Source: an archaeon
GTDB lineage: Archaea > Nanobdellota > Nanobdellia > Woesearchaeales > GW2011-AR4
Direction: 5' to 3'
NCBI GenBank assembly: GCA_002688925.1
Contig: NZEC01000011.1
Coordinates: forward strand, 61,695 to 125,694
DNA length: 64,000 nt
Below are positions 5,773-34,271 of the stretch, piece by piece; position 1 is the first letter of the stretch; every line of letters starts with the position of its first letter. The notes beneath the pieces are model-generated. The model worked only from the letters and a program-made list of their open reading frames with translations, was not told the origin of the DNA and ran no database searches. A program made the translations under genes and the position numbers.

Positions 5773-6957
5773 TTAGCCTTTGCTAAGGAATATTATTTTT
5801 CCTAAAACATCCTCAACCTTGATATTCTTCATGCACTTCTGATAATCTGTAGAGTTTTTCGAAAACAAGCAGTCAGGAACCTGCCCTTTATGCACATTAA
5901 TGCACGGGGAAAAATCGCAATTATCGCCCTTGTAAACAGCAATATTTCCTTTCCCATAAGGCCAGAATCTTTCAGGCAGGTTAGGCCCGAACAATCCAAC
6001 TGTTTTAACCTTTTGCGCAGCAGCAATATGCATCGGCCCTGAATCATTCCCAACAAACAAATTGCATTTCTCAATTAAGTAAAAAAGCTCATTCAGGTTA
6101 AATAGCCCGGCAGTATTAATTATCCTATTATTAATACCCTTGACATCTTTTACATTATCTTTAATTTTCTCTGTAATCTCATTCTCTTTTTCATTGCCGA
6201 TCGATATTATCTTGTTTTTTTTATTTTTCAATAAATTCTCAGATAGCAAAGAATAATTTTTCAACGGCCACATCCTGCATTTGGAGGATTCAGCAGCCCC
6301 CGGAGCAATACCGATAATAAAGTCTTTTTTGGATAATTTTTTTGCTTTAAAGAATTTATCAACCTTCTCCTTATCTTTTTTTGAATAGCTCAATTTCTCA
6401 AGCTTTTTTAATTTATAATTGATATTCAATTTTCTCACTAAATCAAGAAACGTTTCAGATGTATGCTGCCTGTCATTATAAATTACTTTCCCATCATACA
6501 ACCCTGCCCTTATCCCATGAGAATACCCTAATCTTGATTTTCCTGTAAAAAATGATATTATTGAAGATATGTTAAGATACTCTTCCATATCCATCACAAG
6601 ATCATATTTTTTGTAGTTTTTTAATATAAAAGACAGGATAGATAATGGATTTAATTTTAATTCAATAATCTTATCAGCATTTTTATTCCCATAGAAAACA
6701 CTGCTGTTTCTTTTAGTTGTCAAGACATCAATTTCAGATTTTTTAAATCCGCTTCTTAAGGCTTTTAGGGAAGGCAGCATAAGAATTGTCTCTCCAATGC
6801 CCCATAGCTGTATAACTAAAATTTTTTTTGCCTTCAGGTTCAAGCTTTTTTTAGAACTGAAAATACTCAAAAAGCCACATACAGCCTTACCTATATACTT
6901 ATCCAGGAATTTTATAAACTCTACTGCCATATATATCAAAGTCAAGATATAACTCAT
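5773..6957 (-). CDS. glycosyltransferase family 9 (heptosyltransferase-like)
   Basis: C-terminal FVGNDSGPMHIAAA...GLFGP motif and the overall GT9 layout. Confidence 0.75.
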   Translation of the reverse strand: MSYILTLIYMAVEFIKFLDKYIGKAVCGFLSIFSSKKSLNLKAKKILVIQLWGIGETILMLPSLKALRSGFKKSEIDVLTTKRNSSVFYGNKNADKIIELKLNPLSILSFILKNYKKYDLVMDMEEYLNISSIISFFTGKSRLGYSHGIRAGLYDGKVIYNDRQHTSETFLDLVRKLNINYKLKKLEKLSYSKKDKEKVDKFFKAKKLSKKDFIIGIAPGAAESSKCRMWPLKNYSLLSENLLKNKKNKIISIGNEKENEITEKIKDNVKDVKGINNRIINTAGLFNLNELFYLIEKCNLFVGNDSGPMHIAAAQKVKTVGLFGPNLPERFWPYGKGNIAVYKGDNCDFSPCINVHKGQVPDCLFSKNSTDYQKCMKNIKVEDVLGKIIFLSKG

Positions 6958-9146: not shown

Positions 9147-9599
9147 TCACTTCTTCTGCAATTTATCAAGCTCTTCCTCAAACCTATCCAAATCCTCAAA
9201 TTCCATATAAACAGAAGCGAACCTTATGTAAGCAACCTTATCCAGCTTCCTGAGCTTCTTTACTGTTATTTTTCCGATAATCTTGCTGTCAACCTCAACA
9301 GAGTCCCTTTTCCTTAAGTCAGATTCGACCTCATCCGCAAGCTTCTCGATTTTATCAATACTGATAGGCCTTTTTTCGCACGCCTTTAGTATTCCATTTA
9401 TCAGCTTCTGCCTTTCAAACCTCTCCCTCTTCCCGTCTTTTTTAACAACAACAATATCAGCTTCCTCTATCCTTTCATAAGTTGTAAACCTTTTATGGCA
9501 CTTTAAGCACTCTCTCCTTCTTCTTGTAGCCTCTAAATTCTCAGTTTCCCTTGTATCAATTACCTGGGTTTCCTTAAAATCACAGTATTGGCATTTCAT
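9147..9599 (-). CDS. nrdR: transcriptional repressor NrdR (zinc ribbon plus ATP-cone)
   Basis: MKCQYCDF...TQVIDTRE...RRRRECLKCHKRFTTYE zinc ribbon followed by an ATP-cone (VVKKDGKRERF...AYIRFASVY). Confidence 0.9.
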   Translation of the reverse strand: MKCQYCDFKETQVIDTRETENLEATRRRRECLKCHKRFTTYERIEEADIVVVKKDGKRERFERQKLINGILKACEKRPISIDKIEKLADEVESDLRKRDSVEVDSKIIGKITVKKLRKLDKVAYIRFASVYMEFEDLDRFEEELDKLQKK

Positions 9600-9771: not shown

Positions 9772-10542
9772 TTAAGTGTTTTTCCGAGAAACCCTGTAAA
9801 TAAAAACAACTCCAACCAAAAACATAATTATGCTCAAGATCTGCCCCATACTTAAAAAACCAATAATAAAGCCCAATTGCTCATCCGGCTGCCTGAAGAA
9901 CTCAACCGTAAACCTAAAAGCAGAATACATGACAACAAAGAGCCAGAATATAAAGCCCTTGGGCATTTTTTTATCTTTAATTACCCATAAAGTAAAGAAT
10001 ATCACTAAGTCCTTGAATGATGCATATAACTGGCTTGGATGCCTGAAGCCCTCTGCATCCTGAAATTTCATTGCCCATGGCACATTTGTAATCCTGCCAT
10101 ACAACTCCCCATTCGTAAAGTTTCCTAACCTGCCTAAAGCAAGGCCTAAAGCAAGAGGAACAACCGCAATATCCGCAAGCTCGTAAAAATGAATCTTCTT
10201 TTTTTTGCAGAATATTAAAGCAACAATAACAGCACCTATCAATCCACCATGGAAGGACAAACCGCCATTCCAAATTGCTATTATCTGAGAAGGATTATTT
10301 AGGTAAAATGGCAGGTTATAGACAAAAACATAAAAAATTCTTGCACCTAAAACAACCCCGACAATCACATACAGGATAAGATCCGCAATATCATCCTTGC
10401 TTAAAGGCAGCTCTTTTCTCTTTGCGAGATAATTGATTATAAAATAAGCAAGAACAAAGCCCAGGACAAAAAAAAGTCCATAATAGCGAATCTCAAAAGG
10501 CCCTACACTTAACAAAACAGGATCTATATTATGGATGAACAT
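9772..10542 (-). CDS. lgt: prolipoprotein diacylglyceryl transferase
   Basis: GGLSFHGGLIGAV and the signature GRLGNFTNGELYGR; multi-TM, 256 aa. Confidence 0.85.
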   Translation of the reverse strand: MFIHNIDPVLLSVGPFEIRYYGLFFVLGFVLAYFIINYLAKRKELPLSKDDIADLILYVIVGVVLGARIFYVFVYNLPFYLNNPSQIIAIWNGGLSFHGGLIGAVIVALIFCKKKKIHFYELADIAVVPLALGLALGRLGNFTNGELYGRITNVPWAMKFQDAEGFRHPSQLYASFKDLVIFFTLWVIKDKKMPKGFIFWLFVVMYSAFRFTVEFFRQPDEQLGFIIGFLSMGQILSIIMFLVGVVFIYRVSRKNT

Positions 10543-10543
10543 T

Positions 10544-11335
10544 TCATTTCAAAAACTTCTTTTTAACAATATTATAAAAATAAAACCTATTGAAGAGGAT
10601 TGCAATATAAAATATTATTCCAACAGAATGCACAAAGATAATTGTATAAATATCCCCATACCTCAGCAAAGAATTATAGTCTTGGAACAATGTATTTTTC
10701 AGAACTGCCCCGAAAGTGCCAAAAAATAGTGCAATTACAGCTAAAGCAGACAAAATAATCAAAAAAACCCCATAATACTTGTTTACTTTCCCCAGGTTTT
10801 TTGCAGCCATCTGCAAACTATTTCCTAAACTTTTACCTTCATAAAACAACACCTGGCTTATATTTACACAGGCATAAGAGAATACAAAGAAAGCCAGCAA
10901 TATAACTATTGCTATGAACGGCGCAATTCCCTCTTTAACGCTTGCAGCCAATAAGCTCAAAATAAAAAATGAAAAAAACAATATCAGGAAATTAACCAAA
11001 TTCAAAAGAAAAAACTTCCCAAGCCTGCCAAAATCCAATTTATTTTTGCTAAAAACAGATTTAATAAAGGATAAAATAATATACTTAAAGAATGAATAAA
11101 TAAAAAGCAGGCCAAGATAGTAAATTATAACAAGAGCCAGCAGATAATAAACCTGACCCACAGATGCAGGCGTTAAAATAAAGGAATTAAAAATAAGCCC
11201 AAATATCCAGAGCCCCACAAAAAATAGCACATCAATAAGAATAACATATGACAGTATCTTTTTATCCGTCTTTATTGAGTTAAAGGTATCAAAAAAAATA
11301 CTTTCTTTAAATTTATTTTTCAATTTCATTTGCAC
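10544..11335 (-). CDS. polytopic membrane protein, unknown function
   Basis: 263-aa hydrophobic ORF whose stop lies 1 nt from the lgt start, suggesting an operon. Confidence 0.45.
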   Translation of the reverse strand: MQMKLKNKFKESIFFDTFNSIKTDKKILSYVILIDVLFFVGLWIFGLIFNSFILTPASVGQVYYLLALVIIYYLGLLFIYSFFKYIILSFIKSVFSKNKLDFGRLGKFFLLNLVNFLILFFSFFILSLLAASVKEGIAPFIAIVILLAFFVFSYACVNISQVLFYEGKSLGNSLQMAAKNLGKVNKYYGVFLIILSALAVIALFFGTFGAVLKNTLFQDYNSLLRYGDIYTIIFVHSVGIIFYIAILFNRFYFYNIVKKKFLK

Positions 11336-11383
11336 AGATAATAATAATTAATCCAAAAAGAAAGGGTATTTAAACTTTACTTT

Positions 11384-11821
11384 TTAACTCCCAATAACAC
11401 AGCCAGTTATAACTGATAATTTATCCAAAGACTGCACATTCTCATACTTCTCATCATTAATAAACCATGTTGGAGTAATTTTAACTTCATTATTTTCGGT
11501 AAAATCCCTGTAATCAATAAATTTAAAGGATTTTCCAAACATGCCTTTTTGGGCAGCAGAGAACTTGCAAAAAGACGCCCCATACATCACAGCCCCTTTA
11601 TCAGACAAGCATTGTGCAAACCCATTCAAATATCCTGATTTATTTGAACTTACAAAGCTATAGCCAATTCCTGCTCCAATCAAAAGAACAGCAATTAATC
11701 CCACAGAAAAAAAAAGAACTTTCTTATTTTTTTTAGGCTCATTTATAGGTTTATGTGTATTATGCTCTGTTTTTTGAGTTTCATTCCTAATGTTTCCAAT
11801 TTCTTCTTTGCTTAAGGCCAT
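11384..11821 (-). CDS. membrane-anchored thioredoxin-like protein with a degenerate CxxS active site
   Basis: N-terminal TM anchor. GAVMYGASFCKFSAAQKGMFG...ITPTWFINDEKY...SLDKL is collinear with the Trx-like domain fused to bacterial VKOR (GAKMYGAxWCPHCxxQKxLFG...YPTWxING), but CPHC is replaced by CKFS. Confidence 0.6.
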   Translation of the reverse strand: MALSKEEIGNIRNETQKTEHNTHKPINEPKKNKKVLFFSVGLIAVLLIGAGIGYSFVSSNKSGYLNGFAQCLSDKGAVMYGASFCKFSAAQKGMFGKSFKFIDYRDFTENNEVKITPTWFINDEKYENVQSLDKLSVITGCVIGS

Positions 11822-11826
11822 TTTAA

Positions 11827-12036
11827 TTAAGCAGCAGAACTTGAATCAGGAATTAGTGCTCCTGAATCTCCAGCATCCGTACCCGCAACTCCGCAGCCAC
11901 CGCCTACATAGCCTTGGTTTGGATTTTGCTGGCCGCCAGCTGTTGCATATCCGGTTGGATAATCGCTTTTAGTACATCCAAGAACCATCAATGAAACTAA
12001 AGCCAAAACAGCTATTATTAATAAAAATTTTCTCAT
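11827..12036 (-). CDS. small secreted lipoprotein candidate (lipobox)
   Basis: MRKFLLIIAVLALVSLMVLG|C: basic n-region, hydrophobic core and a V-L-G-C lipobox, then a Gly/Gln-rich mature part. Confidence 0.55.
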   Translation of the reverse strand: MRKFLLIIAVLALVSLMVLGCTKSDYPTGYATAGGQQNPNQGYVGGGCGVAGTDAGDSGALIPDSSSAA

Positions 12037-12116
12037 TTTAATATAGTATAATTCAACCGCTTTTATATTTTGCTATTTTGCCCAAAAGCAATATAAAAAA
12101 AATTCTGTTTTAATCA

Positions 12117-12704
12117 TTAAAAAATCGCCTGTATTAATCCTGCAAACACTTTGCTTCCATCAAATCCGGGAATAGGGATCATGTTGAATATAAAGAAAAA
12201 CATATTTAGTTTTGCCATCATACCTATTGTTGTAAAATATTTTCTCTTTACAAGATTATGTTTTATCAAATACATGCCTCCAAGCCATAATATTAAATTG
12301 ATCAATGGCCCTGAAAACGCAACTATTGATGATGCCAAAGCAGGTAATGCACTATGGCTCACATAACCTCCTACAAAGAATAGAATCGGAAAATTAAGAT
12401 GTATGAGCAGTATAACTAAAAGATACATTCCGTATGGAATTCCAAAAAAAGATGGTGCATGCAATGTTGCACTAGCGCCAAACCCCATTGCTGTAAATTT
12501 ATGAGCCATCTCATGCAAAACAACAGCAGGAGCAGCAATCATTGCCCCGTATTTTATATCCTCCCATAACACATTTTTCCTGTAATAAGTCAAAGGATCA
12601 TAACCCTCTTGTGGTGTTCTTCTGAAAAACTTAGAGAAAATATAGCCTATTGCAATTGTCATAACTATGATATCTACTATCTCTGGTAAGGTAATTATTG
12701 CCAT
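12117..12704 (-). CDS. M50 (site-2 protease-like) membrane metalloprotease
   Basis: HEMAHKF (HExxH) in a TM helix and NMIPIPGFDGSKV (NxxPxxxxDG) motif. Confidence 0.7.
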   Translation of the reverse strand: MAIITLPEIVDIIVMTIAIGYIFSKFFRRTPQEGYDPLTYYRKNVLWEDIKYGAMIAAPAVVLHEMAHKFTAMGFGASATLHAPSFFGIPYGMYLLVILLIHLNFPILFFVGGYVSHSALPALASSIVAFSGPLINLILWLGGMYLIKHNLVKRKYFTTIGMMAKLNMFFFIFNMIPIPGFDGSKVFAGLIQAIF

Positions 12705-12800: not shown

Positions 12801-13025
12801 TCACTCAGTCAGCCTATCAGAAATTCTCTTTATTGGAGGAAATATAACTAAAGCAATAGGCAAAGCAACAATAAAGCCAACAATAAAACTTTTTAGCCAT
12901 GCATTAAAGAAACCAGGGACAAAGCCTACATTCATCCAGGTGAGAATCAAAGATATAAAAAAGGACATGGCTAGAGACATTAATATGCCCAATACAACAT
13001 TATAGTATTTTCTGCTTATTTTCAA
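12801..13025 (-). CDS. DUF2798-like small membrane protein
   Basis: 74 aa, two TM helices, with the pattern ...MSFFISLILTWMNVGFVPGFFNAWLKSF...ALPIA... Confidence 0.55.
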   Translation of the reverse strand: MKISRKYYNVVLGILMSLAMSFFISLILTWMNVGFVPGFFNAWLKSFIVGFIVALPIALVIFPPIKRISDRLTE

Positions 13026-13026
13026 A

Positions 13027-13824
13027 TTATTGCTCCATCATCCCATACAGATTATAAAGGATCCTGTCAACGCCTTTTACTAATTCAAATCCATTCCCTT
13101 CAACAACCATGCAATTATCATCATAATAAACCCTTGTTTTATTTGCTTCCTTTATATACAGGACAATATCATCAGTGTTGTCACAGTTTATTACTGGTCT
13201 GCCTTCACATGCAAAAGTCTCATTTTTATCGCATGCAGCTATTGGAGCCTTAAAGAAAACATTAGTCATGTGCTGATTAAAGTCTGCAACAGCCAAAGTC
13301 ACATGTGAAAAATCATTTCCTGTAGGGTCAAATGTCACATAATAATTGGTTGCATCGTTAAAAAGCTCTCTATCTAGAAAGCCTTCTATCTCTATTGGCT
13401 CAACTTCCCTAGGGCCGAACCTGAACTGGATATTGTAAAAACGAGAGCCTTTAGGGCTGACAAGCTGTGTATACCACAAATCATCGAATTTGACAAAAGA
13501 ATATGCGTTATTATGCATGTATCCCTGCTCTTCTTCCAACTCGCCTTTCAGGTTCAGTTCATGCAATTGATCCAGTGTTTTTGGCTGCTCTTTTGTAAGT
13601 ATTATCCAGCTGAATGCAGCAGCAAAAGCCGATATAAGCAAAATTACCCCAATTATCAATGTCCTGTCAGACTTTAATTTGCTCTCTTTTACTTCTTCCT
13701 CCTCAGCCTTTCTGGCTTTTTCCGGTATATTTTTTATCTCTTTCTTCTTTTTTTCATACTCCTTCTTATTTATTGCTCCGGATTCAAAGCTTTCTTCCAG
13801 GTCTTTTAGTTTTTTCCCTTTCAT
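13027..13824 (-). CDS. membrane-anchored extracytoplasmic protein with an N-terminal SHOCT-like motif
   Basis: LKDLEESFESGAINKKEYEKKKKEI (SHOCT-like), one TM helix, then a Cys-containing ectodomain. The C-terminus is paralogous to the upstream gene. Confidence 0.5.
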   Translation of the reverse strand: MKGKKLKDLEESFESGAINKKEYEKKKKEIKNIPEKARKAEEEEVKESKLKSDRTLIIGVILLISAFAAAFSWIILTKEQPKTLDQLHELNLKGELEEEQGYMHNNAYSFVKFDDLWYTQLVSPKGSRFYNIQFRFGPREVEPIEIEGFLDRELFNDATNYYVTFDPTGNDFSHVTLAVADFNQHMTNVFFKAPIAACDKNETFACEGRPVINCDNTDDIVLYIKEANKTRVYYDDNCMVVEGNGFELVKGVDRILYNLYGMMEQ

Positions 13825-14408
13825 TGTATTATCCCCAAAATACCATACAATAACCTGTCCTTAATTGCCACAAAATCCTCGTTTCTGGAGGATTCTGCTA
13901 CAATACAGTTATCTTCCATATAAACATTTGTTTCATTTCCACTTTTAAAATAAACAACAGGAATAAAGTTTGTTGAGTCATTGCACGTTATTATTGGAAT
14001 ATTATTCTCATTTTCAGATGAAAGGCCCTGCCTTACAAAAACATCAAAATTATTCAGCACAATTCCCATCTGGTATTGGGCAAGTGCAATTTCCTCGACA
14101 TTTGTTTCATTAAAATCAGATGTTACATCAATCTCAATTGTATTTTTCAACCTGGAGATAATGATATCATCAACTTTTATCTGCTCAACATCGGCAGGAA
14201 AGTACGTAAACCTAGCTTCTTTCCCATCAACATTCGCTGACCAGTAGCTTCCCTTATTCAAAAACTTAAAGTCGTTATATTTCAGTTTTCCAGAGCCACT
14301 CGTAAAGCCAAAAAAAATCACCCCAAAAACGCTGCTTACCATCACTATGCCCATGAAATATACCATAAGCTTCTTTTTTCTTTCCACTCTCTCAACATGT
14401 TTTCTCAT
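13821..14408 (-). CDS. membrane-anchored extracytoplasmic protein, paralogue of 13027-13824
   Basis: The ORF-track start is TTG. The ATG at 14408 is preceded by TATA TTTAAAAA (14438-14431) at exactly 22 nt. Shares C-terminal ...DNC(I/M)V.E....F..(V/I)KDR(L/I)LY.. with its neighbour and overlaps it by 4 nt (ATGA). Confidence 0.5.
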   Translation of the reverse strand: MRKHVERVERKKKLMVYFMGIVMVSSVFGVIFFGFTSGSGKLKYNDFKFLNKGSYWSANVDGKEARFTYFPADVEQIKVDDIIISRLKNTIEIDVTSDFNETNVEEIALAQYQMGIVLNNFDVFVRQGLSSENENNIPIITCNDSTNFIPVVYFKSGNETNVYMEDNCIVAESSRNEDFVAIKDRLLYGILGIIQ

Positions 14409-14430
14409 AAAGAAAAGCAAATTCTGTTTA

Positions 14431-14605: not shown

Positions 14606-15292
14606 ATGAAATCAACCATTATAAAGCTGGACAATGTATGGAAAACCTATAAGATGGGAGATATTGAAGTTCACGCTTTACAAGGGCTTAGCCTCGAAGT
14701 TAAAGCAGGCGAGTTTTTAGCAATACAGGGAGCAAGCGGCTCTGGAAAAAGCACAGCCATGAACATGATTGGCTGCCTTGACATTCCCACAAAGGGAAGA
14801 GTATACCTTGAAAGCCAGGACATTTCAAGGCTTTCAGAATCTAACCTAGCCCAGATACGGGGCAAAAAAATCGGATTTATCTTCCAGCAGTTTAATCTTG
14901 TAAATACATTGTCTGCAATGGAAAATATTTTGCTGCCTATGATATTCCAGAATATCAGCAGGGAAGAAAGGGAAAACAAGGCAAAAGAGCTCCTGAATAT
15001 AGTTGAATTAGGAGATAGGATGGACCATAAGCCAACAGAGCTTTCAGGAGGCCAGCAGCAGAGAGTTGCAATAGCAAGGTCATTATCAAACGATCCTGAC
15101 GTAATCCTGGCAGATGAGCCAACCGGAAATCTGGACTCAAAAACAGGAGAGAACGTGATGCATTTCCTGCAGAAGATGCACAAGGAAAAAAAGACAACAA
15201 TCGTGATGGTAACCCATGATGCGCATCTTGCAAAGTTCGCCCAAAGGATAGTGCAATTAAAGGACGGAAAACTTATTAGAGGAAGAAAATAA
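14606..15292 (+). CDS. ABC transporter ATP-binding protein (MacB/LolD/FtsE-like)
   Basis: Walker A GASGSGKST, signature LSGGQQQRVAIARS, Walker B ILADEPT, H-loop VTHD. Confidence 0.9.
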   Translation: MKSTIIKLDNVWKTYKMGDIEVHALQGLSLEVKAGEFLAIQGASGSGKSTAMNMIGCLDIPTKGRVYLESQDISRLSESNLAQIRGKKIGFIFQQFNLVNTLSAMENILLPMIFQNISREERENKAKELLNIVELGDRMDHKPTELSGGQQQRVAIARSLSNDPDVILADEPTGNLDSKTGENVMHFLQKMHKEKKTTIVMVTHDAHLAKFAQRIVQLKDGKLIRGRK

Positions 15293-15361
15293 AAAGCTTT
15301 AAAAACTTTGATTAAGTATTATTAAGTAATAAGCATAAAATTGTAAAAAAAGAGTTGAATC

Positions 15362-16639
15362 ATGAAAAAAACATATCTAATTTCACTAATTGCAGTTTTT
15401 ATTCTAATACTTTCAAGCTATAGCATATTTGCCCAGAGTAGCGATAAGATCTTACTTACAGAAAATATAAAGGTCAGCTTTGTCAGCCAGGAACCCGATC
15501 CTGCAGAGCCAGGGACTTTTGTCGATGTAAGGTTTAAATTCGAGAACATAGGCTTAGAAACATCCGATGAAATAACTATTGAGCTTCTTCCAGAATTTCC
15601 TTTCTCTTTATTGCCGGGAAAAAGCGCTGTAACTAAATTAGGCACTTTGCATGCAAGGCAGCTTGGAGAAGACGGAGTAATTGTAAAATACAAGCTTATT
15701 GTGGACAAAGATGCAGTGGAAGGCATAAATGACCTAAAATTAAGGTACAGGATTGGAAATAATGTATGGATTGAGCCGGATGAATACGAAATCCAGGTAC
15801 AAACTCATGATGCAATTTTAAGCATTGATTCAATTAAAATATCCCCTGAAAGAGTAAAGCCAGGAGACAAGGCATCATTAAGTGTTTCCATAAACAACCT
15901 GGCAGATTCATTGTTAAAAGACATAAGGATAAAATTAAATCTGGATAATTCACCTTTAGCAGCCTTTGGCTCAAGCAACAGGAAAACAATAAAAGATATC
16001 AGCTCCGGGAAAGAAATAGAAGTGAAGTTTGATATAATTTCAGAGCCGGACGCAGAATCTGACCTATACACAATTCCAATAGGAATTGAATACAGCGATG
16101 AGCTGGGAAAAGCCTACAATATCACCGGCTCTTTCGGCATTGTTGTCGGCTCTGAGCCGGAACTCTATCCTGTCATTGACAGCACTGAAATCTATAATTC
16201 GGAAAAAACAGGGGATATTACTGTAAAGTTTGTAAATATGGGACTTACAGATATTAAATTTCTTAATGTTAATTTAAAAAGCAGCGATAAATACAAAATA
16301 ATCTCAGCAGATGAAGTCTACATCGGCAATATTGATTCTGACGATTATGAAACAGCGGAATTCAAGCTGTTTGTGAAAAAAACAAAAGAAGAGAATATAA
16401 TATTGCCAATAACCTATGAGTACAGGGACGCAAACAATATTGAATACAAAAAGCAGATAAGTCTTAAGCTTCCATTGTACAGCACAGCAGAGGCAAAAAA
16501 GCTCGGTATTGTTGAAGGAAACGGCAAAGTCGGAATATTTCTTGTAATAATAATCGTAGTTGTCGGCCTTTACATATACAGAAGATGGAAAAAAGGCAAA
16601 AAGCTGATAAGTTTTGGTTTTCGCAAAAAGAGCAGATAA
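15362..16639 (+). CDS. secreted beta-rich surface protein with a C-terminal TM anchor (CARDB/S-layer-domain-like)
   Basis: Signal peptide MKKTYLISLIAVFILILSSYSIFA, repeated beta-sandwich-like segments, and a C-terminal hydrophobic helix plus YRRWKKGKK tail. Encoded inside the ABC operon. Confidence 0.55.
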   Translation: MKKTYLISLIAVFILILSSYSIFAQSSDKILLTENIKVSFVSQEPDPAEPGTFVDVRFKFENIGLETSDEITIELLPEFPFSLLPGKSAVTKLGTLHARQLGEDGVIVKYKLIVDKDAVEGINDLKLRYRIGNNVWIEPDEYEIQVQTHDAILSIDSIKISPERVKPGDKASLSVSINNLADSLLKDIRIKLNLDNSPLAAFGSSNRKTIKDISSGKEIEVKFDIISEPDAESDLYTIPIGIEYSDELGKAYNITGSFGIVVGSEPELYPVIDSTEIYNSEKTGDITVKFVNMGLTDIKFLNVNLKSSDKYKIISADEVYIGNIDSDDYETAEFKLFVKKTKEENIILPITYEYRDANNIEYKKQISLKLPLYSTAEAKKLGIVEGNGKVGIFLVIIIVVVGLYIYRRWKKGKKLISFGFRKKSR

Positions 16640-16714
16640 AAAGACTTTACATTTACCAGGAAGAATCTAATCTTCATCTATTTTTTAGTCAAAAGAAAAA
16701 ATAATTTTTGAAAA

Positions 16715-17944
16715 ATGCTCAAAGACTATTTCATGTTTTCTATCAAGAATCTAGCAAAGAGAAAGCTAAGGTCATGGCTGACCATGATCGGGATTTTCAT
16801 CGGTATTGCAGCTGTTGTATCCCTTATAGGGTTGGGAGAAGGGCTTAGGATTGCAGTCACATCTCAATTTAACTTTCTCGGAAGCGATGTGCTTAGTGTT
16901 CAAGCTTCTGGATTGAATCTTGCCGGACCTCCAGGCACAGCTGTTGCAACTCCATTAACTGATGACCTTAAAGACAAGATATTAAAAATAAACGGCGTTG
17001 ATGCTGCAATTAATAGGTACATAGAATCAGGCACCTTGGAATTTAATGATAGGCAGACAATAGGCATGGCAATGTCCATTCCAGAAGGCAGCGAAAGAAA
17101 GATTTTAGAAGATATGCTGAACTTAAAAGCAGAGCAGGGCAGATTATTAAAAGACGGAGATAATAAAAAGGTTCTTTTAGGTAATAGTTTCAAGGAAGAT
17201 GATATTTTTGGAAAAGGCATAAAGCCTAACGATAGAGTCTTGATAAATGATATTTCTTTTGAAGTTATAGGAATTTTAGAAAAAAAAGGCAGCTTTCTCT
17301 TTGATAGTGCTATTGCTGTAAATGAGCAGACAATGCTGAACTTGATAAGGGAAGCAGATGATACAGACGTAAATGTAATCGGAGTAAAAGTAAAAAATGT
17401 TGATAATATTGATAATGTCAAGGAAAACATCGAAAAGCTAATGAGAAAAGAAAGGAACGTAAAAAAAGGAGAAGAGGATTTTGTAGTGGAAAGCCCCCAG
17501 AATTTATTAGCAACATTAAATTCAACATTGTTTGCAGTCCAGCTTTTTATTTACATTATAGCCTCAATCTCTATAGTTGTAGGCGGCATAGGAATCATGA
17601 ACACAATGTACACTGCAGTCCTGGAAAGGACAAAAGAAATTGGAATCATGAAAGCCATTGGCGCGAAAAACTCAGTAATATTTTTCCTTTTTTCAGTAGA
17701 ATCCGGATTTTTAGGAATGGTAGGGGGAATTATCGGAATAATTTTTGGATTGCTCTTGGCATATGGCCTGGCTTTCATCGGGCAAATTACCCTTGGCTCT
17801 GATTTAATTCAGGCGCACATTACATCTGGTTTAATTATAGGAGCATTGCTATTTTCCTTTATCCTGGGAATCATTTCCGGAATAGTGCCTGCATATCAAG
17901 CTTCTAAAATGCAGCCAGTAGAGGCTTTGAGTTTTATAAAATGA
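16715..17944 (+). CDS. ABC transporter permease, FtsX/MacB type
   Basis: TM1, a large extracytoplasmic domain, then three TM helices. Conserved MNTMYTAVLERTKEIGIMKAIGAKNS block. Confidence 0.85.
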   Translation: MLKDYFMFSIKNLAKRKLRSWLTMIGIFIGIAAVVSLIGLGEGLRIAVTSQFNFLGSDVLSVQASGLNLAGPPGTAVATPLTDDLKDKILKINGVDAAINRYIESGTLEFNDRQTIGMAMSIPEGSERKILEDMLNLKAEQGRLLKDGDNKKVLLGNSFKEDDIFGKGIKPNDRVLINDISFEVIGILEKKGSFLFDSAIAVNEQTMLNLIREADDTDVNVIGVKVKNVDNIDNVKENIEKLMRKERNVKKGEEDFVVESPQNLLATLNSTLFAVQLFIYIIASISIVVGGIGIMNTMYTAVLERTKEIGIMKAIGAKNSVIFFLFSVESGFLGMVGGIIGIIFGLLLAYGLAFIGQITLGSDLIQAHITSGLIIGALLFSFILGIISGIVPAYQASKMQPVEALSFIK

Positions 17945-19152
17945 AAACAGATGAGATAAAATATTCATTGCAGAACCTTGCGCATAGAAAAACAAGGAGC
18001 CTGCTTACTATGCTTTCCATCCTTATAGGAGTCATGGCAATATTTGCTTTGATAAGCTTTGGGCTTGGAATAAGAAATTATATGGATACACTGGCAGAAG
18101 AAGCCGGAGCAGATAAATTATTTATCCAGGCAAGGAGTGTTGGGGTTCCGGGCACAGACGCGAATTTTTTTGTTTCTGCAGATGATATCAATTTTGTAAG
18201 CAAGATAAACGGAGTTGATGAAATAAGTGGAATGTACATTAGAGCCGGAGAAGTAAAATTCAAGAAAGAAAAAAAATTTGTCTTTATTGCAGGCACAGAT
18301 ATTGATAAAAAGGAATTTGTTGAAAAAGCATTTACAGTAGGCGTGGAAAAAGGAAGACAGCTTAAGAAAAACGAGCTTGGCAAAGTAGTTTTAGGCTACA
18401 ATTACCAGTTTGAAGATAAAATATTTAGCAAAGCAATAAAATTAGGCAACAAAATTGAGATTAACGGCAATAGCTATGAAGTAGTTGGATTTTACGGGCT
18501 TATAGGAAATCCACAGGATGATTCAAATGCCTATCTGAATTACAGGTCAATGGAATTATTGTTCGAGGATATCAAAGATGAGTTTGGCTGGGCCATGATA
18601 GGGGCAGATAAAAATACCGATCCTGAAGTGCTTGCAGAAAAGATTGAGGAAAAATTAAGAAAATTCAAGGACCAGGAAGAAGGCAAAGAAGATTTTTTTG
18701 TCCAGACATTTGCAGATGTCTTAGCAACATTCGGCACAATAATAAATGTCCTGAACGGGATTCTTATTCTTATTGCTTTAATATCGATAATAGTTGCTTC
18801 TGTAAACATCATGAACACAATGTATACTGCAGTTCTTGAAAGAACAAAAGAGATAGGCATAATGAAAGCCATAGGTGCAAAAAACTCAGATATTTTATTT
18901 ATTTTTATCTTTGAATCAGGATTGTTGGGAATGGTAGGGGGAATTATCGGAGTGATTTTAGGCTACCTAATATCCAGCGCAGGAGGGCAAATTGCAGCAG
19001 CATCAGGATTTGCAATGCTACAGCCTGTCTTTCCCCTCTACTTAATAATCGGCTCTATCCTCTTTGCCTTTTTAGTAGGCGCAGCATCAGGGATAATGCC
19101 CTCTATAAAAGCATCTAAATTAAATCCAGTGGACTCATTGAGGTATGAGTGA
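17941..19152 (+). CDS. ABC transporter permease, FtsX/MacB type (paralogue)
   Basis: Same architecture and an identical MNTMYTAVLERTKEIGIMKAIGAKNS block. ATGA overlap with the upstream permease. Confidence 0.85.
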   Translation: MKTDEIKYSLQNLAHRKTRSLLTMLSILIGVMAIFALISFGLGIRNYMDTLAEEAGADKLFIQARSVGVPGTDANFFVSADDINFVSKINGVDEISGMYIRAGEVKFKKEKKFVFIAGTDIDKKEFVEKAFTVGVEKGRQLKKNELGKVVLGYNYQFEDKIFSKAIKLGNKIEINGNSYEVVGFYGLIGNPQDDSNAYLNYRSMELLFEDIKDEFGWAMIGADKNTDPEVLAEKIEEKLRKFKDQEEGKEDFFVQTFADVLATFGTIINVLNGILILIALISIIVASVNIMNTMYTAVLERTKEIGIMKAIGAKNSDILFIFIFESGLLGMVGGIIGVILGYLISSAGGQIAAASGFAMLQPVFPLYLIIGSILFAFLVGAASGIMPSIKASKLNPVDSLRYE

Positions 19153-29166: not shown

Positions 29167-30441
29167 ATGGCAACCCAGTTAAGTTATGCAAGAAATGGAA
29201 TAATAACAAAAGAGATGGAATATGCTGCTTCTATTGAAAATATTAATTCGGAAATATTAAGAAAAGGAATAGAAGAAGGAACAATTATAATTCCTGCAAA
29301 CATCAAGCATGAAAACCTTAAGCCAATAGCAATAGGCAAAGGCATTACAACAAAGATAAATGCAAACATTGGCTCATCAAAAGTCAGGGCATGCATGGAT
29401 GAAGAGCTGGAAAAAACAAGGCTCTGCATGAAACATGGCGCAGATACAGTAATGGATTTAAGCACATCAGGAAATTTAAATGAAATAAGAGAAGCAATAA
29501 TAAGGGAATCAACAATACCAATCGGAACAGTTCCAACTTATCAAGTTGTAAAAGAAAACAATACAATTGACGATTTAAAAGAAGAAGATTTTTTAGATAT
29601 AATTGAGCTGCAGGCAAAGCAGGGCATTGATTTTATGACAATACATGCAGGAGTCCTGCAAAAAACACTTCCACTCCTAAAAACAAGGCTTACCGGAGTT
29701 GTAAGCCGAGGTGGTGCAATCCTAGTCAAATGGATGAAGGCAAACAACAAAGAAAATCCCCTCTATACGCAATTTGACCAAATTTGTGAAATTTTTGAAA
29801 AGTATGATGTCGCGTTCTCATTAGGAGATTCCTTAAGGCCGGGAAGTTTGCATGATGCAACAGACAAAGCCCAAATAGCTGAACTAAAAATATTAGGACA
29901 ATTGACAAAAAGGGCATGGGAAAAAAACTGCCAGGTTATGATAGAAGGCCCTGGCCATATCCCCTTAAATGAAATTAAGCTTAATGTTGAATTAGCCAAA
30001 AAATACTGCCATAATGCCCCATTTTATGTTCTAGGCCCATTGGTAACAGATATTGCACCAGGTTACGACCATATTACAAGCGCTATTGGAGCAGCAACAG
30101 CAGGCATGCATGGAGCAGATTTTTTGTGTTATGTGACTCCTGCAGAGCATTTAGGTCTTCCCACTCCAGAAATGGTTAAGCAAGGCATAATAACCTATAA
30201 GATAGCTGCGCATGCAGCAGATATTGCAAAACACATTCCAAACGCAAGAAAAAGGGATGATGAATTAAGCAAAGCAAGATGTAACTTTGATTGGGAAAAA
30301 CAATTTGCATTATCATTAGACCCGGAAACAGCAAAAAAAATGAGAAGCGATTTAAGCCTTGATGATAATTTTTGCTCTATGTGCGGCCCTGATTTCTGCT
30401 CTATGAGGCTCTATTCAAAAATTAATGGAATGAAAAAATAA
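29167..30441 (+). CDS. thiC: phosphomethylpyrimidine synthase
   Basis: ThiC collinear throughout ([25 protein letters not shown]-terminal [11 protein letters not shown] Fe-S motif). Confidence 0.95.
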
Positions 30442-30484
30442 TAACAAAAATATTTAAAAACAATTTGATTTTCTTCTATTTATA

Positions 30485-31201
30485 ATGAACCAAAAGCCAT
30501 TGCCAATAAAAGAAAATAAGCTCAAAATAAAAGAAATTATAGACGAAGCTCCAAACGTAAAAACTTTCAGATTAGAAATTCCAGAAGATTTAACTTATTA
30601 TGCCGGCCAGTTCTTCATGGTGTGGTTTGAAGACAATCCTAAACTGCACAGGGCGTACTCAGTCTCTTCCAGCCCCACAAGAAAAGGGGAAATGGAAATA
30701 ACAGTTATTCTGGTAAAAGAATTCACAAGCAAGCTGTTCAAGTGCAAACCCGGAGATTACCTAATCTTCAAGGGCCCTTATGGAAGGTTTTTATTTACAG
30801 ATGACATGAAAAATCATATTGTGCTGATGGGCGGAGGCCTAGGTATAACTCCTTTAATGAGCATAGTAAGGTACTGCCATGATAAAAAATTAGATAACAA
30901 GATAAACCTCATCTATAGCGCAAGGACACCTGATGATATTGTATACAAAGAAGAATTAGACAAAATAAAAAAAGAAAACCCACACTTCCATTATCATATT
31001 ACTATAACAAGACCAGAACCTCATCACAAATGGGATGGCAGTACAGGAAGGATTGACAGGGACTTAGTAGATATGAACATCCGCGATATAGAAAACAGCT
31101 ACTATTATATCTCCGGTCCGATTGAATTTGTGAACAACAAGCTAAAAATCCTCAATCAACTAGGTGCAAAAAAAGAGCACATACATAAAGAAGCTTGGTA
31201 A
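30485..31201 (+). CDS. FAD/NAD(P)-binding oxidoreductase (ferredoxin-NADP reductase / PyrK-like)
   Basis: RAYSVSS flavin motif, GPYG, and GGGLGITPLMS NAD(P) motif. Confidence 0.7.
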   Translation: MNQKPLPIKENKLKIKEIIDEAPNVKTFRLEIPEDLTYYAGQFFMVWFEDNPKLHRAYSVSSSPTRKGEMEITVILVKEFTSKLFKCKPGDYLIFKGPYGRFLFTDDMKNHIVLMGGGLGITPLMSIVRYCHDKKLDNKINLIYSARTPDDIVYKEELDKIKKENPHFHYHITITRPEPHHKWDGSTGRIDRDLVDMNIRDIENSYYYISGPIEFVNNKLKILNQLGAKKEHIHKEAW

Positions 31202-31228
31202 AAAACCCAATTAAAAATAATATCTAAA

Positions 31229-32023
31229 ATGCAATGCCGTTTTATTGATACTGGATTTAACGATGCATATACAAATATGGCAGTAGATGAGGCTTTATTG
31301 AACTGTTGTGAGATTCCAACTTTAAGGATTTATGGATGGAAACCAGCTATCTCTATTGGATACAGCCAAAATATTCAAAAAGAAATTAATTTGGAGGAAT
31401 GCAAAAGATTGAATATTGGTATAGTCAGAAGAATCACCGGAGGAAAAGCAGTTTATCATGACAAGGAATTAACATACAGCTTTATTCTTCCGGAAAACAC
31501 AAATTTACTGCCAAAAGATATCACAGAATCATATAGGCTCATAGCAAATGCATTAGTTTTAGCTATAAAAAAAATTGGAATTAAAGCAGAAATAAAAAAC
31601 CAGGTAGAGAAATTTTTAACACCCATCTGCTTCAATAGCTCTAATTGGTACGAGCTTGCTGTAAACAACAAAAAAATATCAGGCTCTGCCCAAAGAAGAT
31701 TTAATGGAAAAATTCTCCAGCACGGCCCCATCTTAATGGATTTTGACCACGAGAAAAATGCCTTATTATTTAATTCCAACAACGAAATGGATAATTCAAA
31801 TAATTTAAAAAAAAGAATCACATCATTAAAAGATGAATTAAGAAAAAATATCAGTTATGGTGAGCTTGCAGAAGCACTAAAATACGGATTCAAAGAAAAT
31901 TTCAATTTCAATATTTTTGAAGATTCCTTAACAGAGGAAGAAAAAACATTCGCAGAAAGATTAAGGAAAGAAAAATATTCAACAGAGGAATGGAATTATA
32001 GATTGTTAACAAAAACTATATAA
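31229..32023 (+). CDS. lplA: lipoate-protein ligase family protein
   Basis: BPL/LplA/LipB catalytic domain with RRITGGKAVYHD and KISGSAQRR motifs. Confidence 0.8.
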   Translation: MQCRFIDTGFNDAYTNMAVDEALLNCCEIPTLRIYGWKPAISIGYSQNIQKEINLEECKRLNIGIVRRITGGKAVYHDKELTYSFILPENTNLLPKDITESYRLIANALVLAIKKIGIKAEIKNQVEKFLTPICFNSSNWYELAVNNKKISGSAQRRFNGKILQHGPILMDFDHEKNALLFNSNNEMDNSNNLKKRITSLKDELRKNISYGELAEALKYGFKENFNFNIFEDSLTEEEKTFAERLRKEKYSTEEWNYRLLTKTI

Positions 32024-32056
32024 ACAAACATTATTCTCAAATTATTAGGTGGTTCC

Positions 32057-33358: not shown

Positions 33359-34197
33359 CAGCCCAAATAATAGACGGAAAAAAAGTAGCATCTAAAATCC
33401 TGGAAGATGTGGAAAAAAGAGTAAAAACCATAAAAGAAACGCCTGGACTTGCAATAGTTTTAGTAGGAGATAATCCTGCATCTCAAATTTATGTGGGCTT
33501 TAAGGAAAAAAGGTCAAAGGCAATCGGCTTCTATTGTGAAAGATATAATTTGGATAAAAATACAAGCCAGGATGATGTATTAAAGCTTGTTAACGAATTA
33601 AATCAAAATAATAAGATTCATGGAATGATTGTGCAGCTCCCATTACCAGAACATATAGATGAAAATTTAATCATAGATTCTATCCTGCCGCACAAGGATG
33701 CTGATGGTTTTACCCCTGTTAATTTAGGGAATCTGGTAAATGACAATAACATGCTATTGCCTGCAACTGCCCGTGCTTGCCTGGGATTAATAAAATCAAC
33801 AGGCATGGAAATCAAGGGAAAGAATGCAGTCATTGTCGGAAGAAGCAATATTGTTGGAAAGCCAACAGCATTGATGCTATTGCAGGAAAACGCAACATCC
33901 ACAATATGCCACTCAAAGACAAAAAAACTAAAAGAACATACTAAAAATGCAGACATCTTAGTTGTAGCAACCGGAAAAGCAAACTTAATCACAAAAGACA
34001 TGGTAAAAAAAGGAGCGGTTGTAATTGATGTAGGAATCAATAAAGTAAATGGAAAAGTTGTTGGAGATGTAGATTATGAAAATGTTAAGGAAGTAGCAGG
34101 CTTCATAACTCCGGTACCTGGCGGAGTAGGTCCGATGACAATTGCTATGCTATTGGATAATACTTTGAAGGCTATGGAATTGTTTAAGAGGGTTTGA
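33355..34197 (+). CDS. folD: bifunctional methylene-THF dehydrogenase / methenyl-THF cyclohydrolase
   Basis: GDNPASQIYV, VQLPLP, GRSNIVGKP and PVPGGVGPMT motifs. ATGA overlap with glyA. Confidence 0.95.
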   Translation: MTAQIIDGKKVASKILEDVEKRVKTIKETPGLAIVLVGDNPASQIYVGFKEKRSKAIGFYCERYNLDKNTSQDDVLKLVNELNQNNKIHGMIVQLPLPEHIDENLIIDSILPHKDADGFTPVNLGNLVNDNNMLLPATARACLGLIKSTGMEIKGKNAVIVGRSNIVGKPTALMLLQENATSTICHSKTKKLKEHTKNADILVVATGKANLITKDMVKKGAVVIDVGINKVNGKVVGDVDYENVKEVAGFITPVPGGVGPMTIAMLLDNTLKAMELFKRV

Positions 34198-34271
34198 GTT
34201 CTATAAACTAAATTTCTTAAAAAACAAAGATTTATAAACAAAATTCATTTCTGTTTTTTACCGGTGGTTTT

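Follow-up and report, generated by a model that had tools for sequence, protein, structure and literature searches.

[quoted passage not shown] Two recent primary papers state that archaea have no Lgt (Nat Commun 2025, PMC12462473; mBio 2026, PMC13251419), and the view in the field so far has been that archaeal lipids required the separate AliA/AliB family; the mBio survey searched RefSeq genomes (PMC13251419), among which the uncultured DPANN lineages treated here, known as MAGs, may, we suspect, be unrepresented. AliA and AliB are in turn reported to be absent from all Woesearchaeota and Pacearchaeota genomes of the arCOG set, and none was found in any of seven named Woesearchaeota genomes, in AR15 and AR20, or in one Nanoarchaeota MAG, genomes in which 26–51% of the secreted proteins are predicted by SignalP6 to be lipoproteins (Hong et al.). 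For the E. coli Lgt (5AZB/5AZC), mutagenesis has defined the residues that are intolerant to mutation (Mao et al., 2016; PMC4728403).

We have analysed a stretch of 64 kb (the window) of a 136 kb contig from a marine DPANN archaeon of the Woesearchaeota/Nanoarchaeota lineage. A sequence-only reading of this DNA had identified a bacterial-type Lgt with the signature GRLGNFxNGELYGR, and had noted that archaea are generally described as being without this enzyme, as the two reports cited above indeed state.

A bacterial-type Lgt in a DPANN archaeon

To judge from its sequence, the window gene encodes a genuine bacterial-type Lgt with a complete set of catalytic residues. The product matches PF01790 over its full length (271.4 bits against a cut-off of 24.9, model positions 1–239 of 240) and the equivalog model TIGR00544 (229 bits against 118.9), and aligns with E. 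coli Lgt 5AZB over residues 5–251 (E = 3.4e-55). The signature motif GRLGNFTNGELYG lies at residues 137–149, corresponding to G142–154 of the E. coli protein, whose numbering we use for residues Y26 to R246; the counterparts of Y26, H103, Y235, R239, E243 and R246 in the window protein are Y21, H98 (in H98-G-G-L), Y206, R210, E214 and R217. Both the Lgt call and its signature are therefore borne out by family models and motif alike, and the alignment finds the catalytic residues in place. Of the residues intolerant to mutation in E. coli Lgt, Y26, Y80, F102, H103, G142, R143, E151, Y235 and R239 are invariant in all 44 archaeal Lgt copies, as are N146 and G154 of the signature; E243 and R246 are retained in 41 of these, and G27, S101 and G145 in 36–40.

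The AF2 model of the window protein (pLDDT 89.2, pTM 0.87) fits the seven-TM fold with its arms and head domain, and the sole Foldseek match below E = 0.001 is 5AZB (1.7e-17, TM 0.88/0.80). The archaeal and E. coli enzymes, 37% identical, are thus alike in family and fold, and have in common the signature motif, the HGGL sequence, the R143/R239/E243/R246 network and the kind of substrate predicted, lipobox signal peptides. They differ in that the archaeal copy is 35 residues shorter, mainly in the head domain, and that its clade has a signature of its own (W25Y, M100L, L134P, E206K, G207N/D and L210I); the archaeal gene also resides in an archaeal host, is coupled to an orphan six-TM gene, and has no lsp or lnt detected nearby. 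Archaeal Lgt is predicted from these comparisons to be enzymatically active.

Archaeal residence and origin of lgt

The contig that bears lgt is archaeal. The window encodes Spt5 (TIGR00405, 154.6 bits against a cut-off of 69.95) and the archaeal uL16/L10e (NF003239, 192 bits against 91), and genes for an A-type ATPase, S17e, Rpb6 (RpoK) and L21e lie just beyond it on the same 136 kb contig, which also encodes Rpb4. The archaeal context seen earlier stands in its Spt5 and L10e, while the several intron-bearing tRNAs that had been listed with them reduce to a single tRNA (40554–40644), in which an intron is probable since the gene is 91 nt long and its anticodon unreadable.

Forty-three species-level Woesearchaeota/Nanoarchaeota genomes carry a single Lgt clade (45–80% identity), and its monophyly is recovered in 187 of 200 bootstrap replicates of a neighbour-joining tree, with Lgt of CPR bacteria as the next branch outside. 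The tree makes CPR bacteria the nearest sampled relatives and, being a neighbour-joining one on 256 columns, is only indicative as to the donor lineage that the earlier reading had hoped to place by phylogeny. CPR bacteria and DPANN archaea are both ultrasmall, host-dependent cells that occupy the same habitats. The nearest non-archaeal neighbours in the tree are from Peregrinibacteria (PIS32076.1) and Parcubacteria (MBI4117571.1); the Peregrinibacteria protein has P134, K206 and D207 in common with the archaeal clade, whereas the CPR enzymes keep the bacterial W25 and M100, and their loci are without the six-TM partner. On sequence grounds, the window gene belongs to an old and diversified DPANN clade and is no local acquisition by this genome, because the clade spans 43 species-level DPANN genomes and the composition of the gene matches its surroundings. 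The proposal of a horizontally acquired, bacterial-style system thus holds as regards the bacterial family, and fails as regards acquisition by this genome itself.

Two other explanations for an archaeal lgt were weighed against these data. Given that Lgt is elsewhere a hallmark of bacteria and that most carriers of the archaeal genes are MAGs, bacterial lgt DNA might have been joined to archaeal DNA in assembly, or placed with it in binning. The gene order from Spt5 to TrpRS has however been assembled independently in ENA, in JGI/Tara and from other samples, and 48 collection blocks list the window protein in their index; single contigs hold lgt between archaeal markers, with S17e and RpoK directly adjoining it in other lineages and uS15/RpoL or aS21/aEF1b/aIF5B within a few kb in further ones. 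The tetranucleotide composition of the lgt cluster, a check on binning proposed earlier, deviates from its surroundings by an unremarkable z of 0.5–1.5, and the archaeal sequences form a clade apart. A bacterial or chimeric contig is contradicted by the archaeal markers and the independent assemblies, and we regard an artefact as effectively refuted already, with a negligible chance of being correct. A recent, isolated transfer into one genome, of a gene possibly not yet functional, would be in keeping with the GC content of lgt, which at 0.372 exceeds the mean of the window (0.344), but is already refuted by the distribution of the gene, in that there are more than 120 protein clusters with identities of at least 71%, and the 43 species-level genomes extend the range down to 45%. 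The monophyly of the archaeal sequences, the conservation of catalytic residues throughout the clade and a lineage-specific partner gene that has co-evolved with lgt likewise speak against it, and we give a recent transfer virtually no credence.

Gene neighbours of lgt

Table 1. Features of the five-gene stretch that ends with lgt (window positions)
Feature	Position	Strand	Length and remarks
M50-like protease	12117-12704	minus	195 aa
Spacer between M50 and Lpp69 genes	12037-12116	minus	T8 run, then TATA-like AAAATATAAAAG
Lipobox protein (Lpp69)	11827-12036	minus	69 aa
TM-anchored thioredoxin-fold Cys protein	11384-11821	minus	145 aa
Polytopic 6-TM protein TM263	10544-11335	minus	263 aa as called
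lgt, prolipoprotein diacylglyceryl transferase	9772-10542	minus	256 aa, bacterial type

The sequence-only reading had described five co-directional, nearly abutting genes, and their coordinates and spacing are as reported (Table 1), with gaps between the ORFs, in order from the M50 gene, of 80, 5, 48 and 1 nt. TM263 likely starts at an ATG two codons further in (11329), since gene callers and homologues agree on it, which shortens the product to 261 aa and makes the gap to the thioredoxin-like gene 54 nt. The five genes may be co-transcribed. They are not, as had been supposed, a conserved envelope operon: the M50 gene is without a homologue at the lgt loci of other species, and the spacer that sets it apart from the lipobox gene, as read directly from the sequence, has eight consecutive T and then, some 30 nt ahead of the Lpp69 start codon, the TATA-like AAAATATAAAAG, a possible terminator/promoter boundary. 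The conserved core is TM263 followed by Lgt; the Lpp69 and thioredoxin-like genes accompany lgt in only the three closest relatives (L007, L009 and L013), and in about half of the archaeal loci lgt is found alone or in other gene contexts.

The polytopic membrane protein encoded before Lgt, correctly recognized at the outset but mentioned only in passing, proves to be a recurrent partner. At 21 of the 43 archaeal species loci TM263 is the gene immediately upstream of Lgt, with a gap of 1 nt in nine of the 21 and in the window, and it was found neither elsewhere in the 43 loci nor in the bacterial loci examined. The family comprises 60 clusters, all annotated as hypothetical and, where named, all from Woesearchaeota/Nanoarchaeota, and no Pfam domain is found in it; D35, K84, N112, Y154, Y243, N249 and R250 are invariant. 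The AF2 model (pLDDT 83) is all-helical and gave no significant match in a fold search of the PDB, profile comparison revealed no similarity to Lgt or Lsp, and a Pfam scan of TM263 at E ≤ 1 gave no match to DUF63. TM263 is probably a functional partner of Lgt, and as a new gene family it may point the way to a pathway step that has yet to be accounted for.

Lpp69, which had been picked out as a protein with signal peptide and lipobox, is a candidate prolipoprotein on inspection as well. The signal peptide MRKFLLIIAVLALVSLMVLG, followed by the lipobox Cys21, fits a PS51257-type rule, to which no other of the 77 ORFs in the window conforms, and the mature part of 49 aa is Gly/Gln-rich with a second conserved cysteine, Cys48. 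The lipobox and the GGGC motif are kept in all three relatives, always just upstream of the thioredoxin-like gene.

For the 145 aa protein, the description as a membrane-anchored thioredoxin-like protein is confirmed only by profile: a profile of seven homologues matches the thioredoxin domain of Synechococcus VKOR (3KP8/3KP9) with E = 2.9e-18 over profile positions 68–140, whereas the sequence taken singly does not reach the threshold of Pfam (Thioredoxin_4, E = 0.056). The protein retains the PTW motif of the VKOR-fused domain and its flanking cysteines, Cys71 and Cys141, but it is a separate polypeptide anchored by a TM segment of its own (a single N-terminal one, residues 32–60), and there is no VKOR nearby. 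Its active site is degenerate, C85-K-F-S (CxxS instead of CxxC) in place of the CPHC of the Synechococcus protein; no CxxC redox motif occurs in the window copy or its three nearest homologues, which share SFCK[FY][ST], while a more distant copy, directly upstream of Lgt in L039, has WCPHC.

The M50 protease was correctly identified: it scores 39.4 bits with PF02163 (cut-off 27.2) and is a small intramembrane metalloprotease of the site-2 protease family, with HEMAH (HExxH) at residue 64 and NMIPIPGFDG (NxxPxxxxDG) at residue 174. The assemblies that show it beside the lgt cluster are all of this one genome, and a paralogue at 57714–58340 adjoins an HtrA-like protease. A link between the M50 gene and lgt is doubtful.

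Lipobox proteins and the role of archaeal Lgt

Near the archaeal lgt genes 26 ORFs have a lipobox, compared with two each in reversed and shuffled controls (762 ORFs; 13-fold), and cysteine is the most enriched residue at position +1 (5.1-fold). The matches include four Peripla_BP_6 binding proteins, a multicopper oxidase, a cupredoxin and a thioredoxin, so that the enrichment foreseen for a functional Lgt is found among the ORFs close to the gene. Signal peptidase II had been reported as not visible in the window, and we concur: a three-sequence HMM for Lsp (PF01252), run with no positive control, and combinations of Lsp motifs gave no match in the window or across 85 loci, approximately 0.53 Mb of which is archaeal DNA, so that the archaeal sequence covered comes to some 0.6 Mb. 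Pfam scans of the window ORFs and of 20 kb beyond the window ends identified neither Lsp nor Lnt, neither was found within 10 kb of lgt in the 43 archaeal genomes, and DUF63 was not matched by any of the window ORFs scanned against Pfam. A 278 aa CN_hydrolase encoded upstream of TM263-Lgt in eight related loci was rejected as an Lnt, an enzyme that combines an 8-TM domain with a periplasmic CN_hydrolase, as it has neither signal peptide nor TM domain.

We consider it likely that these archaea have a resident bacterial Lgt, anciently acquired, that lipidates lipobox proteins in place of AliA/AliB. An ancestor of the Woesearchaeota/Nanoarchaeota lineage would have taken lgt from bacteria long ago, the gene afterwards being inherited and held under purifying selection in many species. 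Lipobox preproteins exported by Sec, such as Lpp69, encoded three genes upstream, or the substrate-binding proteins, cupredoxins and multicopper oxidase of related genomes, would arrive at the outer face of the membrane, where Lgt would move a lipid-glyceryl moiety from a glycerol-headed anionic phospholipid to the lipobox cysteine in thioether linkage, so anchoring the protein to the membrane. Both Lgt and AliA/AliB are presumed to place lipid on the lipobox cysteine of secreted proteins, and Lgt probably does in this lineage what AliA/AliB (DUF63) do in haloarchaea. The statement that archaea have no Lgt is shown to be wrong by a clade that is conserved and catalytically complete in no fewer than 43 species. 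The clade would also explain the phyletic gap of AliA in Woesearchaeota, a match that holds at the level of lineages, not genome by genome; Lgt and AliA/AliB would then be two unrelated archaeal answers to one and the same problem.

The donor lipid would be either a bacterial-type phosphatidylglycerol or archaetidylglycerol. The ether-lipid membrane assumed in the earlier reading is a presumption for this lineage: marine Woesearchaeota MAGs are reported to have bacterial-type genes for fatty acids and cyclopropane phospholipids (PMC10936187), which would allow common phosphatidylglycerol to act as donor. An unmodified Lgt pocket might be unsuited to archaeal lipids, given their stereochemistry and ether bonds. 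The system puts the lipid divide to the test, in that either a near-canonical pocket takes ether-linked sn-1-type archaeal lipids or the membranes contain bacterial-type phosphatidylglycerol, and the latter option bears on the identity of the hosts of these archaea.

The preferred reading has to be set against others in which Lgt has a different task or a larger entourage. The enzyme may have been repurposed, using some other acceptor for the glyceryl lipid or helping a host-dependent cell to remodel or scavenge lipids, with no part in lipoprotein formation; the searches for Lsp in the window and loci yielded no match, DPANN cells depend on foreign lipids, and the cavity lining shows the clade-specific changes W25Y, M100L, L134P, E206K and G207N. 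We nevertheless find this improbable, as the HGGL motif, which binds the peptide, is invariant together with all catalytic residues, a CPR bacterial Lgt has the same cavity signature (P134, K206, D207), lipobox ORFs of classic lipoprotein classes are strongly enriched, and a conserved lipobox gene lies within the same cluster. Slightly less probable still is that the five genes are a dedicated maturation operon, with the M50 protease as signal peptidase II and Lpp69 as dedicated substrate, for all that they share direction and tight spacing and that Lpp69, the thioredoxin-like gene and TM263-Lgt stay together in the three relatives. M50 proteases cut inside the membrane, and RseP of E. coli breaks down signal peptides; but the M50 gene is absent from L009, where there is room upstream of Lpp69 (the L007 and L013 contigs end too close), the T8 run and TATA-like element separate it from the next gene, its paralogue lies elsewhere in the window, and half of the archaeal loci have lgt alone or otherwise placed. 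More plausible than either, though still unlikely, is an elaboration of lipidation by Lgt into a hybrid Woesearchaeales pathway without a counterpart in any organism described so far, in which a bacterial Lgt, obtained from CPR bacteria or shared with them, replaces AliA/AliB and forms a two-part machine with the translationally coupled TM263. TM263 would then provide what Lgt by itself is short of in these cells: it might present or flip the donor lipid, a scavenged bacterial phosphatidylglycerol or archaetidylglycerol, or alternatively stand in for Lsp by removing the signal peptide, and the monothiol thioredoxin-like protein, outside the cytoplasm, may keep the lipobox cysteine reduced.

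A transporter cluster is also present in the window at 14606–19152, and has genes for an ATPase that best matches LolD and for a pair of paralogous MacB_PCD+FtsX permeases, each some 400 aa long. The layout resembles the LolC/LolE pair of LolCDE, but the scores fall far short of the cut-offs for the Lol equivalogs (249.8 against 307.75, and 69.9 against 362), and the cluster has a divergent orientation and is broken up by a gene for a CARDB surface protein; membership of the Lol family is rejected by these scores, and the cluster encodes a generic MacB-type exporter.

Enzyme and archaeal context

That archaea have no Lgt, a premise of the earlier sequence-only reading, is indeed what the literature says (Hong et al., Nat Commun 2025, PMC12462473; Legood et al., mBio 2026, PMC13251419), and our full-text literature searches found no paper tying Woesearchaeota or DPANN to Lgt. 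The presence of Lgt in Woesearchaeota and Nanoarchaeota contradicts this explicit and recently repeated generalisation, and exposes an uncharacterised gene, TM263, that is probably a functional partner of Lgt.

The window protein matches PF01790 from end to end (271 bits), passes the NCBI equivalog TIGR00544 (229 bits; cut-off 118.9) and aligns with E. coli Lgt (5AZB) at E = 3.4e-55; for its AlphaFold model (pLDDT 89), 5AZB is the sole significant PDB neighbour (E = 1.7e-17, TM 0.88). When it was placed on E. coli numbering together with 43 other archaeal Lgt sequences, all 44 shared Y26, Y80, G99, F102, H103, G104, D129, G142, R143, N146, F147, N149, E151, G154, H196, Q199, Y201, Y235 and R239, and 41 kept E243 and R246. 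Most of the mutation-intolerant positions mapped by Mao et al. (2016; PMC4728403) fall in this invariant set, the remainder (G27, S101, G145, E243, R246) being kept in 36-41 of the 44; G138 is Gly in just 20, with mostly Ala, which is tolerated, in the others. The catalytic residues, left earlier to be checked on alignment, are thus not missing, the essential set being invariant or near-invariant. By every test of sequence and modelled structure the archaeal enzyme would be classed as an ordinary Lgt, and its novelty lies in its place of occurrence.

Relative to E. coli Lgt the archaeal clade has a signature (W25Y, M100L, L134P, E206K, G207N/D, L210I), several positions of which line the lipid cavity. 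Because P134, K206 and D207 are also common to Peregrinibacteria, the case for E206K/G207N as an ether-lipid adaptation is weakened, and we do not read the cavity signature in that way.

Chimerism or contamination of the contig is effectively excluded. Its archaeal context, proposed earlier on Spt5 and L10e, holds up both in gene content and in composition: the window encodes Spt5 (TIGR00405), archaeal uL16/L10e (NF003239), type-I ProRS (TIGR00408, proS_fam_I), FtsZ and SepF, and the 10 kb past either window end of the 136-kb contig carry A-type ATPase subunits, S17e, Rpb6/RpoK, Rpb4, L21e and a prepilin peptidase. In GC content and tetranucleotide composition the lgt cluster does not stand out from the window (z = 0.5-1.5). 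An Lgt protein identical to that of the window is listed in 48 collection blocks and is named 'prolipoprotein diacylglyceryl transferase [Candidatus Woesearchaeota archaeon]' in NCBI records, and the Spt5-to-TrpRS gene order around lgt repeats in ENA and JGI (Tara) data assembled independently.

The 'intron-bearing tRNAs' also claimed come down to a single tRNA detected in the window, of 91 nt, which matches the entire 71-position Rfam model (45.6 bits), is given an unassignable 'anticodon' of four bases by ARAGORN and probably contains an intron. The window also holds an unusually rich set of biosynthesis genes for a DPANN genome (ThiC, ThiG, ThiE, SHMT, FolD, PurN, PurH, PurD, PurF, GuaA, PRPP synthase, lipoate ligase and lipoyl synthase), which suggests a less host-dependent lifestyle, and an AmmeMemoRadiSam system.

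Features of the window and of related loci (window positions unless a locus is named)
Feature	Position	Strand	Basis or content
M50-family protease	12117-12704	-	ORF listing; Pfam cut-off passed; HEMAH and NMIPIPGFDG
Lpp69, 69 aa	11827-12036	-	ORF listing; PS51257-type rule, Cys21
Single-TM protein, 145 aa	11384-11821	-	ORF listing; profile match to 3KP8
Polytopic protein TM263, 263 aa	10544-11335	-	ORF listing
Lgt, 256 aa	9772-10542	-	ORF listing; PF01790, TIGR00544
GT9 glycosyltransferase, heptosyltransferase-like	5773-6957	-	
NrdR repressor	9147-9599	-	
DUF2798 membrane protein	12801-13025	-	
Overlapping gene pair	13027-14420	-	199 and 265 aa
ABC exporter cluster	14606-19152	+	MacB/Lol-type
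Biosynthesis genes	29167-40014, 45387-46253, 50873-57598		
tRNA	40554-40644	+	
Protease pair	57714-59373	+	M50 paralogue, HtrA/DegP-like
AmmeMemoRadiSam system	60112-62583	-	AMMECR1, Memo, radical SAM
PPAT-S17e-RpoK block	L091:6449-7392		locus of the window genome
Distant TM263 homologue P0302 with flanking genes	L087:3055-5757		
CN_hydrolase upstream of TM263-Lgt pair	L014, L016, L017, L026, L027, L030, L031, L036/L089 (e.g. L089:3125-3961)		

Distribution and origin of archaeal Lgt

A large protein database contains over 120 clusters with at least 71% identity, many of them from Tara samples. A search in which each GTDB species was represented by one genome found Lgt (45-80% identity) in 43 archaeal genomes from marine, groundwater and sediment samples, titled Woesearchaeota, Nanoarchaeota, Nanoarchaeia or Nanobdellati, with some binchicken MAGs titled 'uncultured Methanosarcinales'. 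In these last co-assemblies (e.g. loci L006, L008, L011 and L014-L017) Lgt nests among Woesearchaeota/Nanoarchaeota copies, and the title is probably a placeholder or wrong taxonomy.

The gene directly abuts those for S17e and RpoK in several of the 43 genomes, and in two additional copies of greater divergence the neighbours are uS15/RpoL or aS21/aEF-1beta/aIF5B. Several close marine relatives (L005, L006, L008, L010) have lgt directly adjoining a PPAT-S17e-RpoK block; in the window's genome this block is about 7 kb past the right window end, so that lgt has moved relative to it.

In a neighbour-joining tree of 69 named sequences archaeal Lgt is monophyletic (bootstrap 187/200). On addition of 150 50%-cluster representatives, most of them without a source name, three typed by gene context and P0140 ambiguous, all named archaeal copies grouped into a single clade with about 101 tips, and the next tips outside include Parcubacteria and Peregrinibacteria sequences. 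Since the gene is spread over 43 genomes and the archaeal copies are monophyletic, its acquisition would be old and clade-wide. The phylogeny proposed earlier for finding the donor thus places CPR bacteria nearest; they are the best candidates for donor or co-recipient, an assignment that is not robust. What stands of the sequence-only reading is that an archaeon carries an Lgt of bacterial type together with a candidate substrate; its local acquisition of an operon was wrong in scale and structure, because the gene is ancient and lineage-wide.

Gene neighbourhood and the probable partner TM263

Five co-directional, nearly abutting genes had been described around lgt, and the ORF listing bears this out, with gaps of 80, 5, 48 and 1 nt; gene callers and homologues make an ATG two codons downstream the likelier start of TM263. 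Taken as an operon, the five-gene unit is not conserved among the lgt loci of relatives. The M50 gene accompanies the cluster in no assemblies other than those of the window's genome and is absent in the related locus L009, contigs L007 and L013 ending too near for a call; after it, the sequence shows a T8 run followed by a TATA-like box. Lpp69 and the 145-aa protein are found with Lgt in L007, L009 and L013 only. The latter was rightly called thioredoxin-like, being a homologue of the domain fused to bacterial VKOR (3KP8 profile, E = 2.9e-18), but the CxxC of that domain has turned into CKFS in the window's subclade; a CPHC-bearing homologue lies directly upstream of lgt in locus L039.

Several neighbouring genes deserve mention. 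Just upstream of M50 are two overlapping genes for N-terminally anchored proteins with no family match, followed by a DUF2798 gene, all three found only in assemblies of the window's genome. NrdR, directly downstream of lgt, and a nearby heptosyltransferase-like gene, whose best match, to LPS heptosyltransferase II, stays under the cut-off, are bacterial in flavour. Divergently oriented and 2 kb from the lgt cluster, an exporter cluster encodes an ATPase, a CARDB surface protein anchored by a C-terminal TM segment and two paralogous permeases; LolD is the best NCBIfam match of the ATPase, but at 249.8 bits (cut-off 307.75), and the MacB_PCD+FtsX permeases (409 and 403 aa) are paired like LolC and LolE but score far under the Lol cut-offs. 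Further away, a second small M50 paralogue (208 aa) precedes an HtrA/DegP-like trypsin-fold protease (321 aa), possibly as an envelope quality-control pair.

A profile search found TM263 in 21 of the 43 archaeal loci, in each case co-directional with lgt and as its next upstream gene, and in none of the bacterial lgt loci; the gap is 1 nt in nine archaeal loci as well as in the window. The family comprises 60 clusters, all unnamed and, where a source is given, from the archaeal lineage of the window, with no match weaker than E = 1e-32. Pfam gave only DUF4271 (4 of 17 members, best E = 1.5e-4), NCBIfam and a PDB sequence-profile search gave no match, Foldseek against the PDB reached at best E = 1.6, to choline-transporter-like CTL1/PNS1 and CysZ (TM <= 0.51), and hhalign against Lgt and Lsp profiles returned a probability of 0.2%. 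By the positive-inside rule TM263 is predicted to have six TM helices with both ends cytoplasmic, and most of its invariant polar residues (K84, N112, N249, R250) would lie towards the cytoplasmic side.

Two more specific roles were considered for TM263. Thioredoxin-fold neighbours, in the window and in locus L087, prompted a DsbB/VKOR-like role, which we dropped, as no cysteine is conserved in the family. A second archaeal subclade (B) encodes a soluble 278-aa CN_hydrolase, with neither signal peptide nor TM segment, directly upstream of the TM263-Lgt pair. The catalytic domain of Lnt belongs to the CN_hydrolase family (nitrilase superfamily), and hydrolase and TM263 might together form a split Lnt; as a claim of membership this too was dropped, since the hydrolase has no export signal. 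A distant homologue, P0302 (29% identity), is not adjacent to Lgt and is flanked by DsbD_TM (CcdA-like) and Thioredoxin_4/DSBA genes, a second link of the family to extracytoplasmic thiol-redox proteins.

Candidate substrates, pathway and donor lipid

The description of Lpp69 as a signal-peptide and lipobox protein is upheld. A positively charged n-region and a hydrophobic core precede its lipobox, LMVLG-C, it alone among 77 non-overlapping window ORFs satisfies a PROSITE-PS51257-type rule, and the lipobox and a second Cys (GGGC) are conserved in the three closest relatives. Lipobox signals occur in 30 of 685 ORFs (4.4%) over 527 kb flanking archaeal lgt genes and, by the same count, in 22 of 702 ORFs of bacterial lgt loci. 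With alternative starts left out, they occur in 26 of 762 ORFs against 2 in a reversed and 2 in an N-terminally shuffled control, Cys being the residue most enriched at +1 (5.1-fold); lipobox enrichment, a further point raised earlier, is thus found among ORFs near archaeal lgt. A Pfam scan of ten of the larger lipobox ORFs assigned seven to a family, namely four Peripla_BP_6 substrate-binding proteins, one multicopper oxidase, one cupredoxin/COX2-like protein and one thioredoxin. All these protein classes rank among the classic lipoproteins of monoderm bacteria and haloarchaea.

Neither Lsp, Lnt nor DUF63 genes were seen in the window, its flanks or within 10 kb of archaeal lgt. For Lsp, an HMM of three LspA sequences (E. 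coli, B. subtilis, S. aureus; motifs checked by eye), run with no positive control, and regex motif combinations were applied to every ORF, and to the translation of all six frames, in the window and 85 loci; the best HMM match had E = 0.019 and the top matches were Lgt itself, in agreement with the earlier remark that the window shows no signal peptidase II.

The supplementary tables of Hong et al. (PMC12462473) list seven named Woesearchaeota genomes together with AR15, AR20 and one Nanoarchaeota MAG; in these ten, predicted lipoproteins make up 26-51% of SignalP6-secreted proteins, and all have zero members of arCOG02177/02178 (DUF63), the haloarchaeal lipidation enzymes AliA/AliB. A resident Lgt would be the obvious candidate to fill this gap in Woesearchaeota.

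A motif scan for lipid-synthesis genes revealed no CDP-alcohol phosphatidyltransferase near lgt. Marine Woesearchaeota MAGs are reported to contain FabG/I/Z, cyclopropane-fatty-acid phospholipid synthase and the MEP pathway (PMC10936187), and published reports also give GpsA and GlpK for Woesearchaeota and PlsC/PlsY for some DPANN (PMC6431249), so that bacterial-type phosphatidylglycerol is as plausible a donor as archaetidylglycerol.
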